This document shows, piece by piece, positions 6,259 to 58,555 of a stretch of 58,555 bases of DNA. A model generated the notes under the pieces. It did not search any database, had not been told where the DNA came from, and saw nothing but the letters and a program-made list of their open reading frames with translations. Origin of the DNA: Acidobacteriota bacterium (GTDB lineage: Bacteria; Acidobacteriota; UBA6911; RPQK01; JADFOI01); assembly GCA_022562935.1 (NCBI GenBank), contig JADFOI010000003.1:1-58555 (forward strand), given 5' to 3'. Position 1 is the stretch's first letter, and each line of letters opens with the position of its first letter. Position numbers and translations under genes: made by a program.

Positions 6259-6406
6259 GACCTGCCCCCACGAATAAGTCCACCTTCTAAGTTAGACCTG
6301 GGACCACTGACCTGCCCCGGGAAACTGTACCAAGCATAGGGTTAGGATTTTCAGGTTGGGACGGGTTGTTTGCTCGCTGAGGGACTCGAACCCCCGACCC
6401 CCTGGA
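6259..6406. repeat. ~150-bp direct repeat, copy 1 (two GACCTGCCCC-initiated segments plus the 3' 36 nt of tRNA-Val)
   Basis: Matches 58401-58555 with about five substitutions and one 7-nt indel. Confidence 0.95.
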
Positions 6407-6444
6407 TGTAAGCCAGGTGCTCTAGCCAACTGAGCTAAGCGAGC
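6371..6444 (-). tRNA. tRNA-Val(TAC), complete, CCA not encoded
   Basis: GCTCGCT-TA-GCTCAGTTGGCTAGAGC-A-CCTGG-CTTACAT-CCAGG-GGGTC-GGGGG-TTCGAGT-CCCTC-AGCGAGC-A folds as a cloverleaf. Confidence 0.95.
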
Positions 6445-6526
6445 ATATTTACATCACGATAACGTCACTCCGGATCTCAGGACTTCTATATCTCCTTACC
6501 TGTCAATAACTTGCCAATCCATGCAA

Positions 6527-6568
6527 CTCCTTGTAAGGGAGGCGCTCTGCCAGCTGAACTAACCGCCC
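6527..6568 (-). pseudogene. 5' half of a second, different tRNA-Val(TAC), truncated in the anticodon stem
   Basis: GGGCGGTTAGTTCAGCTGGCAGAGCGCCTCCCTTACAAGGAG followed by non-tRNA sequence. No T-arm, and no ACCGCCC 3' acceptor strand was found nearby. Confidence 0.85.
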
Positions 6569-6589
6569 ACGGTGGTTGGGGAGGGGAGG

Positions 6590-6617
6590 AGTATAACAGA
6601 AGGAAGGAAGCGCTCAA
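6590..6617 (-). promoter_or_regulatory. Sigma70-type promoter for the tRNA-Val locus
   Basis: TTGAGC-16 bp-TATACT with an extended -10 TG, about 20 nt upstream of the truncated tRNA. Confidence 0.65.
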
Positions 6618-6638
6618 TTATTCTAGCCAGTGCTGCGC

Positions 6639-6881
6639 TTACATCTGCTCCCGCAGGAAGGTCTTGAGACGGTTCTCCAGTTCCTTCGGGATTTCTACTT
6701 GCTGATCTCGCAGTTGCTGGGCCATCTTCGAGCAGTCTCGATACGACTCCAGAAAGTTGAGGCAGGGAGGACAGGCAGCGAAATGCTGGTCTAGTTTCTT
6801 CTGGGTCTCAGAATCGAGATTGTCCTCCAGATAATCCATCAACAAGTCAAAACAGTCCTTGCACTTCAAATCGTTTCTCAT
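6639..6881 (-). CDS. Zinc-binding anti-sigma factor (zf-HC2/ZAS)
   Basis: CKDCFDLLMDYL...HFAACPPC (HxxxCxxC); overlaps the ECF sigma stop by 4 nt. Confidence 0.9.
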   Translation of the reverse strand: MRNDLKCKDCFDLLMDYLEDNLDSETQKKLDQHFAACPPCLNFLESYRDCSKMAQQLRDQQVEIPKELENRLKTFLREQM

Positions 6882-7480
6882 CCTCTGCCCTCAAGATAGT
6901 CTGCCAATTTCTTGCGCACGGCGAGCCGACCCCGGTGAATTCGAGTCTTGGCGGTGGCTTCTTTGAGCCCCAGTAGGGAAGCAATCTGCTTGATCGGATA
7001 CCCTTCGGTATCCCTCAGGACCAGCGGGACGCGATATTCAAAGGGTAGCGATTGGATGGCCTCGTAGAGCTGGCTTGCCAGCTCTGCATTCAGAATGACA
7101 TCCTCTGGGTCCACCGACCAGCGGAAGAGTGAACCGTGAAGGTGGCCATCTTCGGAGAAGGTGGGAGCGTACTCCTCCAATTGGATCTCCCGTCCACGAC
7201 TGGACCGGCGTTTTCTCAGCCACATGATGGAGTTATTGATGGCGATCCGTTTCATCCAGGGCCAGATGTCGCTCTCTTGGCGAAAGGTGTCGATTTTACG
7301 AATGACCCTGAGCAAGGTGTCTTGCAGAATCTCCTCAGCATCAGGCGGATTCTTAGTGTAATTGAGGATCACGCCAAAGAGAGGTCGAGAGAACTGCTGA
7401 ATGAATTCATCAATGACTTCTGTATCAGCATCCTTGAGTCCCTGGATGATCTGCTGCTGTCCTAATTCCTTGGTTTTCAT
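6878..7480 (-). CDS. ECF RNA polymerase sigma factor
   Basis: DAEEILQDTLLR...FRQES...WMKRIAIN region 2; LPFEYRVPLVLRD.EGY..KQIA..LG...ATAKTRIHRGR region 4. Confidence 0.93.
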   Translation of the reverse strand: MKTKELGQQQIIQGLKDADTEVIDEFIQQFSRPLFGVILNYTKNPPDAEEILQDTLLRVIRKIDTFRQESDIWPWMKRIAINNSIMWLRKRRSSRGREIQLEEYAPTFSEDGHLHGSLFRWSVDPEDVILNAELASQLYEAIQSLPFEYRVPLVLRDTEGYPIKQIASLLGLKEATAKTRIHRGRLAVRKKLADYLEGRG

Positions 7481-55845: not shown

Positions 55846-56112
55846 GGTAGGGAACTCTTCAATCGAGGTTTCAGTATCCAGGGCCCTCCTTGTGTGGTAT
55901 CATGGGATCCTCCACTTCAGTCACCGGGTCTTCTGAACTGGGCCCGGAAGAAATCAAGACCCCATCAAAACAGGACTCTGAATTCGCTTAGAGAAGGCGT
56001 CTAGGGATTGGAAGACGTTCACCCGTTCCCAGTTTCCCCGGCCAAATAGTCGAGAGTCCGCTGGATTCGAGCATCAGAGGTGCGCGAATCCATCAGGTAA
56101 GGAGCAATTGAA

Positions 56113-57342
56113 TTGAGTTTTACACAGTTTTCGTTTGATCCCCGGATAGCCGACGCCATCAGGCAGATCGGCTATACCGTTCCCACTCCCATCCAGCAGA
56201 GGGGCATTCCCGTTGTGTTGGAGGGACGCGACATGCTGGGGTTGGCCCAGACCGGCACCGGAAAGACGGCATCCTTCCTCCTTCCCTTGCTGCAACGCTT
56301 GATGCTAGGCCGCAAGGGGCGGATTCGGGCTCTCATCCTGGCTCCCACCCGGGAGCTCGCCGAACAGATTCACCAGACCGCTGTTGATCTAGGCAAAGGT
56401 TCTGGAGTCCGCAGCATCTCGATTTATGGGGGTGTTGGAAAGCACGCCCAGGTGGGGGCTCTTCGGCGGGGTGCTGAGATCGTGGTCGCCTGTCCGGGAC
56501 GACTACTCGACCATATATCCGGGGGAAGCATCAATCTCTCGGGAGTCGAGATGCTGGTTCTGGACGAGGCGGACCGGATGTGCGACATGGGATTCCTTCC
56601 GGACATCCGGCGAATTCTCAAATACCTTCCCGGAACCCGCCAGACTCTGTTTTTCTCCGCCACCATGCCGGCCGAAATACGAAGACTGGCGGATGGAATG
56701 CTCCGCGACCCGGTGTTCGTACAGATCGAGGCGGGTGTGCCCGCCAAGACCGTTTCCCACACCTTCTATCTGGCCTCCCACGATCGCAAGTACCAGCTAT
56801 TGCTGAGGCTTCTCCAGACGACAGATACCGGTAGGGTGCTCATCTTCACCCGTACCAAGCGGCGTACCCGGAAGCTGGCTGCCGAGTTGAAGAACCAGGG
56901 GTACCGGGTCGCGGGACTCCAGGGCAACATGGTCCAATCGCAGCGCCGGCGGGCCATTGACGGATTTCGCAACGGCCAATACGACATTTTGGTGGCCACG
57001 GACGTAGCGGCCCGGGGCATCGACGTGTCGGAGATCTCACACGTGATCAACTTCGACATGCCGGAATCCGTCGATGCCTATACCCATCGCATCGGCCGCA
57101 CCGGCCGCGCCGAGCGAACTGGCGAGGCCTTCACCTTTGTGACCCATACCGACAGGCCCATGGTGCGCAAGATCGAGGGGGTGCTGAAAAAAGCGGTCGA
57201 GCGCCGGACTTTTCCGGATGTTTTGCGGAACCCGACGAGTTCTGGGGACACACCCGGCCAGGGTCGTTCACGACGGGGCCGTCCTCAGAGTAACTCCAGG
57301 AGAACTCGCGGTAGGCGTCGTGCAGGAAGGTCTCCGCAGTAA
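56113..57342 (+). CDS. DEAD-box RNA helicase (RhlE-like)
   Basis: AAGGAG RBS, TTG start; PTPIQ, AQTGTGKT, APTRELA, LDEADRM, SAT, TDVAARGID, HRIGRTGRA; basic tail. Confidence 0.96.
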   Translation: MSFTQFSFDPRIADAIRQIGYTVPTPIQQRGIPVVLEGRDMLGLAQTGTGKTASFLLPLLQRLMLGRKGRIRALILAPTRELAEQIHQTAVDLGKGSGVRSISIYGGVGKHAQVGALRRGAEIVVACPGRLLDHISGGSINLSGVEMLVLDEADRMCDMGFLPDIRRILKYLPGTRQTLFFSATMPAEIRRLADGMLRDPVFVQIEAGVPAKTVSHTFYLASHDRKYQLLLRLLQTTDTGRVLIFTRTKRRTRKLAAELKNQGYRVAGLQGNMVQSQRRRAIDGFRNGQYDILVATDVAARGIDVSEISHVINFDMPESVDAYTHRIGRTGRAERTGEAFTFVTHTDRPMVRKIEGVLKKAVERRTFPDVLRNPTSSGDTPGQGRSRRGRPQSNSRRTRGRRRAGRSPQ

Positions 57343-57655
57343 TTGCATGGGTAATCAGAGGCCAGTGTTTTGGTTACACCCGTAAACTTAACCCACCCAT
57401 TGGAACGAGGTGGGGATGAGGGAGTTAATGGGGAAGCTTTTTAGACAAGCAGGTGAAGATGCGGACAGAAGTCTCTAATCCGTCTAATCCATAATGTAAC
57501 CCTGGCCCCACTGTCAGTTCTGACAGTTGTCAAACCAGCACGACATCAATAGTCTTCACCGTATGCCGTCAACCTTGTTTCGATAGGGAAATGGGTCGAT
57601 CGTCAGGGTAACCCGTGTCCTGATGTCCGTGTTTTGAGGGAAGGAGCATTCTAGG

Positions 57656-57997
57656 ATGAGAACAAGATTACTCGCTGTGGGGCTTCTATCCTTTGGACTT
57701 GCGGCCTGTGGTGGGGCGACCCGGTTTGCCAGTACCTGGGTCGATCCCGCGGCTCGGCCCACTAACTGGGACGGCCAGAAGGTTGCGGCTTTTGTTTTGA
57801 GTGCTCGGGACTCCATCAGGCTGGGAGCCGAGGAGTCGCTGGCGCGGGAATTGACCAGCCGGGGAGCACAAGGGATCGCCGGGCACACCATCGTGCCCAA
57901 GGAAGTGACTGAAGATCAGGATAAGGTCAGGGAACTCCTGAGGGAGGGAGAGTTCGGGGACAGGCCCACAATGCAAAGGTTAAACCCCTACGGATAA
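57656..57997 (+). pseudogene. Lipoprotein gene, probably 3'-truncated
   Basis: AGGAG upstream; lipobox LAAC. The sequence character changes abruptly after ...DKVRELLR near 57945. Confidence 0.55.
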
Positions 57998-58205
57998 AAC
58001 CTATTTTCTCGGGCTGGCACGGAATGAGTTTCGACAGGTAAATAAAGGGGACAGTGTCTTTAGTAGGTAGTTGACTGCAGTTGGCAAAAGCTTGCTCGAT
58101 CCGTGGTATCGATCCTTGGTGCGCACTGCTTGGCAAAAGCTGCTGTTGTGGCTGTTAAGACCACACCTGGTCCTGTTTAGGTCTGTTTATGGTCGGGTAT
58201 AGGGG

Positions 58206-58397
58206 CTATTGCTGGCCTGTTTGGGGCAGTTCGATAGGGTCTGATTCATCCAGTGACGGCAGCTTGTTTACGGCCTGCCTGTTTGCACCTGGTACCAAGT
58301 GGCCGTAGGTGTCCACTGTCATGCGTATGCTGCTGTGGCCCAACTGATCCTTGACATAGGCCAAGCTTTCACCATTTTGCAGCAAAAGGGTGGCAAA
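58206..58397 (-). pseudogene. C-terminal fragment of a tyrosine recombinase/phage integrase
   Basis: Manual translation FATLLLQNGESLAYVKDQLGHSSIRMTVDTYGHLVPGANRQAVNKL...*: box II LGH and the catalytic Tyr. Cut at the repeat starting 58401. Confidence 0.9.
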
Positions 58398-58400
58398 GTT

Positions 58401-58555
58401 GACCTGCCCCCACGAACGAGTCCACCTTCTAAGTTAGACCTGGAACCATTGACAGTTGACCTGCCCCGGGAAACTGTACCAAGCATCGGGTTAGGATTTT
58501 CAGGTTGGGACGGGTTGTTTGCTCGCTGAGGGACTCGAACCCCCGACCCCCTGGA
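58401..58555. repeat. ~150-bp direct repeat, copy 2; last 36 nt equal the 3' part of tRNA-Val(TAC), cut by the window edge
   Basis: 58520-58555 is identical to 6371-6406. Confidence 0.95.

Follow-up and report, generated by a model that had tools for sequence, protein, structure and literature searches.

Insertion sequences (ISs) of the IS3 family are 1.2-1.55 kb long and produce target-site duplications (TSDs) of 3-5 bp, those of the IS407 group being 4 bp. The inverted repeat of IS407A, of Burkholderia mallei/pseudomallei, has been published as TGACCTGCCCCCT with TSDs of 4 bp, and the IRR of ISPa32 from Pseudomonas aeruginosa begins TGACCTGCCCCC (TGACCTGCCCCCAG...). In B. mallei, cases of one IS disrupting another have been described for IS407A together with many copies that lack TSDs, suggesting recombination between copies (PMC2877748). 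Solo IS ends left by microhomology deletion, IS-mediated tandem duplications and tRNA-targeting islands bounded by attL and attR are further systems with which the locus described here can be compared.

The window analysed is the entire contig C154 (58,555 bp) of an Acidobacteriota MAG of 188 contigs. A reading of the sequence alone (the sequence-only reading) had reported a direct repeat at 6259-6406 and 58401-58555 differing by about 5 substitutions and a 7-nt indel, and this was borne out by alignment (92% identity over 155 columns, E 1.3e-60). The differences were unevenly placed: the first 50 nt of the two copies carried 4 substitutions and the 7-nt indel (58451-58457), and the other 99 nt carried a single substitution (6337 A / 58486 C). 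The IS sequence accounts for 108 of at least 148 repeat bases, and the repeat also takes in the 3' 37 nt of a tRNA-Val gene identified by ARAGORN.

The repeat contains the right-end tips of two IS3-family elements

The outer 50 nt of the repeat are the right-end tip of a 1267-bp IS, here called IS B, and the 58 nt that follow are the corresponding tip of another member of the IS3 family, IS A. In copy 1 the two segments are as follows.

6259-6308, minus strand: segment 1, the last 50 nt of IS B, consisting of the IRR end including the orfB stop codon, with the terminus facing left
6308-6366, minus strand: segment 2, the last 58-59 nt of IS A, consisting of the IRR end with the last 6 codons and stop codon of orfB

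Segment 1 matched positions 1219-1266 of an intact IS B in the relative G003, and segment 2, nested 50 nt inside the IS B end, was 95% identical to positions 1236-1294 of an intact IS A in the congener G004. The terminal T of segment 1 is changed to C in copy 1 (C at 6258). Intact IS B is an IS3-family, IS407-type element with ends TGACCTTGCCCCC... and ...GGGGGCAGGTCA, in which orfA and orfB overlap near GGGAAAC, a candidate slippery site. Intact IS A is 1294 bp long with ends TGACCCAAACCCC... and ...GGGGCAGGTCA; its orfA of 88 codons ends ...TCAAAAAAGG at a predicted slippery site (A AAA AAG), and orfB overlaps it in another frame. Against the NCBIfam IS3 model NF033516 (cut-off 160 bits), OrfB of IS A scored 229.8 bits and OrfB of IS B 245.8 bits. 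At least 84 distinct full-length copies of IS B were found in relatives, mostly in two complete MAG chromosomes; 71 of the 84 were exactly 1267 bp long, and a perfect 4-bp TSD flanked 21 of them compared to about 0.3 expected by chance. The IS3-family nature that the sequence-only reading had suggested for the (T)GACCTGCCCC segments is thus upheld on three counts: relatives carry intact copies, the NCBIfam model recognises both OrfB proteins, and the inverted repeat published for IS407A agrees. Like IS407A and ISPa32, IS A and IS B have the terminus 5'-TGACCTGCCCCC, a length of about 1.27-1.29 kb, two ORFs that overlap (IS A having an A6G slippery site) and a DDE/rve OrfB, and IS B shares the 4-bp target duplications of the group. 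The nesting of one IS in another and the many copies without TSDs likewise agree with the description of IS407A in B. mallei. They differ in that the host is an uncultured acidobacterium and that the window holds the end fossils of 50 nt and 58 nt alone.

The sharp left boundary of the repeat is the IS terminus (5'-TGACCTGCCCCC), and unrelated DNA therefore adjoins the same nucleotide at each landing site of the IS. The boundary is common to further copies: it was found in seven copies of segment 1 in this genome, identical at the left edge with different flanks, and in more than 100 copies in relatives. The 108-nt composite of segments 2 and 1 also occurred in G003 (two copies), in G004 and on contig C113 of this genome, where it directly follows a partial OrfB (1394-2272) with HTH_21, rve and rve_3. 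The partial OrfB on C113 belongs to the same element. The window has no transposase, as the sequence-only reading had stated, and no left IS end, and the binned genome contained no intact IS A or IS B. A complete element is absent from the site, where remnants lie at 6259-6366 and 58401-58515. The (T)GACCTGCCCC segments start at 6259, 6309, 58401 and 58458, both in the same orientation, and no inverted partner followed any of the seven copies; a MITE was rejected on these grounds. The repeat is the fossil remnant of two ISs of the IS407 type (IS3 family), one nested in the other, that are fused to a tRNA-Val gene, and it is no working mobile unit.

The tRNA-Val locus and its deletion junction

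Copy 1 lies between a conserved chromosomal flank and a tRNA-Val gene, with the following features.

5889-6257, minus strand: hydrophobic ORF of 122 codons with TTG as its only start (ORF list), adjoining the IS terminus of copy 1
6359-6369, no strand: deletion junction, located by comparison with the relatives G001, G002 and G004
6370-6445, minus strand: complete tRNA-Val(TAC), "type 2" (ARAGORN, Rfam)
6527-6568, minus strand: surviving 5' half (42 nt) of a native "type 1" tRNA-Val(TAC), matching the opening 42 nt of the tRNA-Val of G003 and G005 at 97.6% identity

The ORF at 5889-6257 had no Pfam match, and its DNA was 98.6% identical in the closest congener, G002, up to 6260. The region is a conserved chromosomal flank outside the repeat and the ORF is putative. 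On the other side of the IS fossil, the complete tRNA-Val gene was 100% identical in G001 and G004, and a different, native tRNA-Val occupies this promoter in G003 and G005. The native 5' half lies 81 nt upstream of the complete gene. The type 2 gene was apparently imported by an old integrative element.

The junction between the inner IS and the tRNA gene falls in 8 nt, GGACGGGT (6359-6366), common to IS A (...GTTGGGACGGGTGAAAC) and to the native 3' flank of tRNA-Val (...GTTTGGACGGGTTGTT), and 6367-6369 are native flank. In G001, G002 and G004 the tRNA gene stands next to ...AAAGTTTGGACGGGTTGTT (...TTTGGACGGGTTGTT) with no IS. G001 also connects the tRNA to the left region of the window, and the left flank of G002 (98% identical) matches up to 6260 and continues with 1.2 kb in place of the 108 nt. 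Alignment with these relatives showed a deletion at the 8-nt microhomology between the inner IS and the tRNA 3' flank that removed the rest of both ISs and, in the same event, about 1.2 kb of island debris still present in the closest relative. Copy 1 is the ancestral locus, and an independent assembly reproduces it at 99.7% identity over 13 kb. As in other solo IS scars, a single terminus was kept, the breakpoint lies in a microhomology of 8 nt and a relative without the IS reveals the deleted DNA; here, by contrast, a nested pair of ends remains and the scar junction is present twice. The presence of an identical scar junction at two places requires a secondary recombination or duplication.

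Origin of the second copy

The right end of the window contains three features up to the last base of the contig.

58206-58400, minus strand: C-terminal fragment of a tyrosine integrase, 64 codons (Pfam Phage_integrase, positions 136-168 of 172)
58401-58457, minus strand: segment 1', an independent copy of the IS B end whose TG terminus is intact, plus 7 extra nt
58457-58555, minus strand: segment 2' with the same deletion junction and 37 nt from the 3' end of tRNA-Val, differing from copy 1 at a single base in 99 nt (99%) and cut by the contig end

The integrase fragment matched Phage_integrase with E 1e-4; its score fell short of the gathering threshold, as that of an incomplete domain should. 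Its frame is cut just before NFATLLLQNGE, with the result that the box II R-H is lost. A paralogous fragment on contig C103 adjoins a tRNA-Gly att-like repeat, which indicates that the fragment is no tRNA-Val integrase; it is one of a family of island remnants associated with tRNA-Gly. Segment 1' had 1 mismatch to the C113 copy compared to 4 to copy 1, and the 7-nt insert at 58451-58457 was absent from all other composites seen. None of the relatives had a tRNA-Val near the region homologous to the right end. Taken together with the near-identity of the inner 99 nt to copy 1, this suggests that copy 2 is a hybrid whose outer 50 nt resemble another IS copy. Because the window is the whole contig, copy 2 stops at the end of the assembly and at no biological end.

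We consider it probable that IS fossils became fused to tRNA-Val and that copy 2 then arose by recombination between two IS-end fossils. A separate copy of the composite IS end would have inserted, oriented like copy 1, in an integrase pseudogene at a distance of 52 kb, and homologous recombination within the shared ~100 nt would have joined its outer part to the inner part of copy 1 with tRNA-Val. Unequal exchange between such direct repeats would give a tandem duplication of the 52 kb, possibly in only part of the co-assembled strains. Assembly would then end at 58555 because from there the path leads back into bases already placed at 6407. Among the full-length IS B copies of relatives, three quarters lacked a TSD, a sign that IS copies may often recombine with one another in this lineage. 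Most likely, then, the apparent 52-kb bracket is a recombination junction between two leftovers and no new type of mobile unit, and we infer that the recombination gave a tandem duplication or a strain variant. The locus resembles IS-mediated tandem duplications in that direct IS repeats flank the segment, the junction is hybrid and the contig end re-enters the interior; it differs in that fossils of about 108 nt take the place of full ISs and in that the duplication itself is deduced from the assembled bases. Duplication or excision of the enclosed DNA by way of the repeats, as the sequence-only reading proposed, is plausible but unproven; copy 2 has the appearance of a product of such an exchange. 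The stronger claim, that two ~108-nt IS-end fossils recombined in the living population and made the 52 kb a tandemly duplicated, amplifiable unit, is possible but tentative.

Several observations count against recombination between fossils. The substrate is short, about 108 nt, and the crossover would have to fall inside the 58 nt of segment 2, or inside 29 nt should the donor have supplied the C at 58486. The expected reciprocal or original continuation to the right (integrase fragment, segments 1' and 2', and the IS A body) was on no contig. Copy 1 lacks the IS terminal T, and in the closest relative the match ends at this very nucleotide and gives way to another insert; the recombination reading cannot fully explain the coincidence of the shared breakpoint.

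A strain mosaic or assembly effect, in which copy 2 derives from a co-occurring strain of different arrangement, haplotypes are mixed in the contig and two copies at a distance of 52 kb would exist in no one genome, is unlikely. In its favour, the MAG is strain-mixed, with 74 of 376 contig ends (20%) duplicating the interiors of other contigs at 95-100% identity (median 97.4%), and copy 2 may therefore sit in a minority strain. It was found in this contig alone, the JGI metagenome collection yielded no match to the junction patterns, and right of 57373 close strains and assemblies differ, with homology ending at 58218 or 58346. On the other hand, a stretch of 120 nt takes in the tRNA junction, the C at 58486, the 7-nt indel and the integrase/segment 1' boundary, so that k-mers or single reads must have carried them together on a real molecule. 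The fragment is contiguous with a DEAD-box helicase gene in independent assemblies, to 58218 and 58346, and a strain with this junction would still require a rearrangement placing tRNA-Val beside the integrase fragment. Somewhat less probable again is a second locus at which a segment beginning at the IS terminus, with the IS fossil and a full or partial tRNA-Val, would have been copied into the integrase gene by a transposase acting in trans on the solo IS end and a surrogate second end, or by another duplicative event. At its left edge copy 2 meets the interrupted gene with an exact IS terminus (TG), as at a transposition junction, the composite is present at several loci and in three species in the manner of a travelling unit, and IS3-type elements are active in the lineage. 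However, copy 2 departs most from copy 1 at the IS end (4 mismatches and a 7-nt indel in 50 nt compared to 1 mismatch in 99 nt), where it resembles another copy, no other contig of the genome carries a second 5' part of this tRNA-Val, and a source element is missing from the bin, as noted above. The same divergence speaks against the earlier proposal of an IS-end/tRNA hybrid that has moved and serves as a recombination end: the copies differ most exactly where a transposition copy would be preserved, and the unit is a fossil of microhomology deletion with one IS end and with no second end or transposase in the window. Mobilisation of the solo IS end and tRNA gene by a trans-supplied transposase is less likely than recombination between fossils.

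It is very improbable that the repeats are att sites of a 52-kb island in tRNA-Val with the truncated integrase as its recombinase. As in tRNA-targeting islands, the repeat includes the 3' part of a tRNA gene, an integrase fragment adjoins one copy, and the tRNA-Val locus is scarred by an old integration (the 5' half at 6527-6568). The bracketed DNA differs from such islands: it contains priA, pyrG, metH, an icd/leuB-type dehydrogenase gene and pgm (encoding PriA, CTP synthase, MetH, isocitrate/isopropylmalate dehydrogenase and phosphoglucomutase) at an even GC of 0.51-0.58 throughout, and these housekeeping genes indicate that it is no island. The repeat is mostly IS sequence, younger than any integration. 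Read in the direction of the tRNA, the full gene comes 52 kb after the truncated copy, the reverse of what attL and attR would show, and the 64-codon integrase fragment has relatives that accompany tRNA-Gly. With no intact integrase, no accessory cargo and an unfit order, a tRNA-integrating island was rejected.

IS-end fossils in this acidobacterial lineage

The finding is an ordinary one, and its value lies mainly in annotation. It gives names to two IS407-type elements, previously without annotation, that are present in great abundance in this acidobacterial lineage, and it illustrates how the fossils of their ends can mislead in MAGs by giving rise to "repeat brackets" and to breaks between contigs; a repeat that touches a contig end should not be taken as a biological boundary. 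If the duplication were confirmed, the locus would be a tidy natural case of segmental duplication via very short IS remnants, by a mechanism that is well known. If the two fossils did recombine in the living population and duplicate the 52 kb, IS tips of about 100 nt, even though dead, would be a cause of large natural changes in copy number.

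Two IS3-family ends in the repeat

The direct repeat of about 150 bp proposed by the sequence-only reading is real: 6259-6406 (copy 1) aligned with 58401-58555 (copy 2) at 92% identity (E 1.3e-60), with five substitutions and one 7-nt indel. ARAGORN placed a minus-strand tRNA-Val(TAC) gene at 6370-6445; the repeat therefore contains the 3' 37 nt of this gene, a linker of 3 nt and, further downstream of the gene, 108 nt more. Within it, the decamer GACCTGCCCC starts at 6259, 6309, 58401 and 58458. An Rfam scan of all eight repeat loci returned tRNAs only and no RNA family for the repeat.

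That reading had also proposed IS3-family ends here, correctly, as established by intact elements in related genomes, their OrfB scores and the inverted repeat of IS407A. By sequence, 6259-6308 is the final 50 nt of an element of IS407 type (IS B), and 6308-6366 is the final 58 nt of another IS3-family element (IS A), which lies 50 nt inside IS B.

L037:2181-3447, intact IS B in the complete congener G003, 1267 bp
L013:103-1396, intact IS A in the relative G004, 1294 bp

IS B of G003 has the ends TGACCTTGCCCCC... and ...GGGGGCAGGTCA, is flanked on both sides by GTCG, and encodes the C-terminus of its orfB (...WSGLQMVPGLA, stop) within its last 50 nt. In IS A of G004, orfB overlaps an 88-codon orfA whose end lies at an A AAA AAG slippery site. 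The OrfB proteins of IS A and IS B scored 229.8 and 245.8 bits against the NCBIfam IS3-family model, both passing its cut-off of 160 bits. IS407A has the published inverted repeat TGACCTGCCCCCT and 4-bp target repeats, and the IRR of ISPa32, also of the IS3 family, starts TGACCTGCCCCC. IS A and IS B are unnamed acidobacterial IS407-type elements of a kind already known. We read the repeat as a nested pair of IS3/IS407-type end fossils joined to a tRNA-Val of island origin, and the IS-fossil part of this reading is almost certain. The composite of the two tips also occurs in G003 (twice) and G004, and in the relative G006 the IS A tip adjoins a 50-nt left-end tip of IS B type, indicating that the nesting is old and recurrent.

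The 108 nt outside the tRNA are dispersed in this metagenome-assembled genome (MAG). They recur complete on contig C113, directly after a 261-codon ORF with HTH_21, rve and rve_3 domains; C69, C186, C126 and C134 also carry the first 48-61 nt of the repeat, and C159 has just its second segment. One sharp left boundary is common to all copies, and their left flanks are unrelated. The boundary that the sequence-only reading saw cutting two different genes is simply an IS terminus. Three of these loci are solo IS B tips.

C126:2785-2869, solo IS B tip, about 82-92 nt kept before divergence
C186:11799-11880, solo IS B tip, about 82-92 nt kept before divergence
C134:14467-14558, solo IS B tip, about 82-92 nt kept before divergence

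These recurring tips have similar lengths and cluster near tRNAs, two of the three having a tRNA-Phe gene or tRNA fragment 150-180 nt away. Overall, four of seven repeat copies have a tRNA gene or fragment no more than about 200 nt away. This proximity, together with inverted pairs 7.5 kb apart in the related genome G055, led us to consider the end of a Tn7/CAST-like or other tRNA-homing transposon, which we rejected because a 1267-bp IS3 element has these 48-50 nt as its tip on the orfB side. An inverted partner was found at none of the repeat copies, which are thus not MITEs.

Copy 1 and the split tRNA-Val locus

Copy 1 adjoins a tRNA-Val locus that is split.

6446-6568, minus strand, promoter and 42-nt native 5' half, 81 nt, then complete tRNA-Val(TAC)

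Nucleotides 6527-6568 are the first 42 nt of a tRNA-Val that is intact at this promoter in G003 and another relative, G005; at 6370-6445 the complete gene encodes another tRNA-Val, type 2. The same split arrangement is present in G006, and in G001 and G004 the type 2 gene lies directly at the promoter. The tRNA beside the IS fossil is thus apparently itself the legacy of an old integrative element, and the split locus looks like an old integration that carried its own replacement tRNA. A search of the binned genome for the displaced native 3' half (attR) found none.

Downstream of the tRNA, G001, G002 and G004 carry ...AACAACCCGTCCAAACTTTGAATTGC, which in plus-strand reading is ...AAAGTTTGGACGGGTTGTT adjoining the tRNA. 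IS A reads ...CAGGTTGGGACGGGTGAAAC and the window ...CAGGTTGGGACGGGTTGTT adjoining the tRNA, which places the join within the common GGACGGGT (6359-6366); this IS/tRNA-Val join is the product of a deletion at a microhomology. In this region G002, the closest congener, and the window agree at 97-99% identity, and their left flanks match as far as window 6260. Where the window has its 108 nt, G002 has a 1.2-kb stretch of debris comprising a further piece of integrase, a tRNA-like fragment and an IS110-like end; beyond it lies the same tRNA. G001 likewise joins the type 2 tRNA-Val to the window's left region, and in an independent assembly, L078, copy 1 is present together with 13 kb of its surroundings, at 99.7% identity. 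These comparisons mark copy 1 as the locus at which the fossil originated. An IS inserted beside a hydrophobic ORF, and a later deletion removed the IS bodies and debris.

Copy 1 has C in place of the IS terminal T, and G002, with a different insert, loses homology exactly where the IS tip begins.

Contig C65, L063:3100-3165, G002 break, equivalent of window 6258-6260

This position may be a hot spot for insertions; alternatively, the IS3 inverted repeat may have been the target of an IS110-type element. An IS110-like hairpin end lies about 60 nt into the G002 insert.

Copy 2 at the contig end

The MAG comprises 188 contigs (3.44 Mb, 89% complete, reported contamination 2.3%), and because the window is the whole of contig C154, copy 2 stops at the assembly's end. 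Of 376 contig ends, 74 had a counterpart of 150 nt or more inside another contig, with identities of 95-100% and a median of 97.4%, revealing redundant haplotypes of closely related strains in the bin despite the 2.3% figure. The MAG is strain-mixed, and copy 2 may accordingly belong to a minority strain. Copy 2 follows a truncated gene.

58206-58400, integrase fragment, 64 codons, cut just before NFATLLLQNGE

The fragment is contiguous with a DEAD-box helicase gene, as confirmed in independent assemblies of very close strains, which in neighbouring-gene look-ups diverge from the window at 58218 and 58346. Its paralogue on C103 adjoins a toxin-antitoxin pair and a tRNA-Gly att-like repeat, a context that assigns the fragment to tRNA-Gly-type island debris and not to tRNA-Val. 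C103 and the window's right end also have in common a small-protein gene and a further repeat, R2. An apparent 66-kb synteny in G005 proved to be with the paralogous region on C103. No relative examined has a tRNA near the homologous right-end region, and a native second tRNA-Val locus there was rejected. A look-up of the fragment's ORF returned no record, and scans of metagenome contigs for the exact integrase-fragment/IS B-tip and IS A/tRNA junctions were both empty.

Copy 2 differs from copy 1 by 4 mismatches and 7 extra nt in the left 50 nt and by 1 mismatch in the next 99. Its left part is nearer to the C113 copy (1 mismatch) than to copy 1, and by this measure we judge that it was not copied from copy 1. 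The IS/tRNA-Val deletion junction is a one-off, yet it is present in copy 2, so the right part was copied from copy 1. This divergence pattern is poorly matched by a separate second locus made by transposition-like copying, a less probable explanation. A pure assembly chimera is unlikely, since the integrase junction, the 7-nt indel, a private C at 58486 and the tRNA junction are all found within 120 nt. The exact terminal overlap of 69 nt corresponds to no standard assembler k value.

We consider it reasonably probable that copy 2 is a product of recombination. In the simplest explanation, homologous recombination would have joined two directly oriented composite IS tips, one beside tRNA-Val and one in the integrase gene, although the homology at hand for such an exchange is short. 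Unequal exchange would yield a tandem duplication of 52 kb, which we infer, with copy 2 as its junction. The assembler would then halt at 58555 because the path re-enters 6407 onwards, where the stretch to 6640 carries the 5' part of the tRNA, a spacer, the native (type 1) half and an anti-sigma gene, and this would explain why the 5' part of the type 2 tRNA-Val, sought on the other contigs of the MAG, was on none. The duplication model predicts an original right-hand copy that branches after 58515 into the IS A body (GAAACACCC...). We excluded a 52-kb genomic island on gene content and even GC; the interval encodes PriA, CTP synthase, MetH, isocitrate/isopropylmalate dehydrogenase, phosphoglucomutase, a GDP-mannose pyrophosphorylase-type enzyme, UDP-glucose dehydrogenase and an ABC exporter.

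Other repeats and IS B across genomes

R2 is a dispersed repeat of about 90 nt (GGGGACAGGCCCACAATGCAAAGGTTAAACCCCTACGGATAAAACC...) that the genome carries 8 times, with further copies in congeners.

Window 57947-58036, R2
C103:5011-5092, R2
C181, C6, C141, C107, C78 and C88, further R2 copies

In C103 and in L075, a related strain, members of the same integrase family are cut off at the edge of R2, so R2 may be the end of another mobile element. At window 54366-55856 a segment made of the 3' part of tRNA-Gly(CCC) and some 137 nt more has a second copy 1257-1282 nt downstream, and between the two lies a lone tctC-type gene; C103:2995-3173 holds a related att-like repeat beside an integrase pseudogene and a HigB/HigA-like pair. 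The two loci suggest a decayed family of tRNA-Gly-integrating elements. Many intergenic tandem heptamer arrays (TGTCAGC, GGTTCCA and TTTGAAT types) flank GC-rich hairpins (CAGCCGGAAGACCGGCTG), and palindromic repeats of about 34 nt (e.g. 14905-14937, 49266-49298) occur on dozens of contigs; both are REP-like elements of this lineage.

Window 10409-10487, 26746-26886 and 43091-43365, examples of heptamer arrays/hairpins

On the G055 chromosome, inverted IS B copies lie 7.5-7.8 kb apart at three places (L031, L032, L033), forming composite-transposon-like units; the L031 pair encloses about 5.3 kb, including an IS200/IS605-type TnpA-like ORF. A scan for the IS B tip, using one genome per species, gave 110 stretches with the tip. 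These yielded 84 distinct IS B elements at full length, of which 71 measure exactly 1267 bp; 21 of the 84 are flanked by a perfect 4-bp target duplication, where chance would give about 0.3. Retention of the duplication by only 21 of the 84 full-length copies (in L087-L166) suggests extensive inter-IS recombination, with rearrangements, in these acidobacterial chromosomes.
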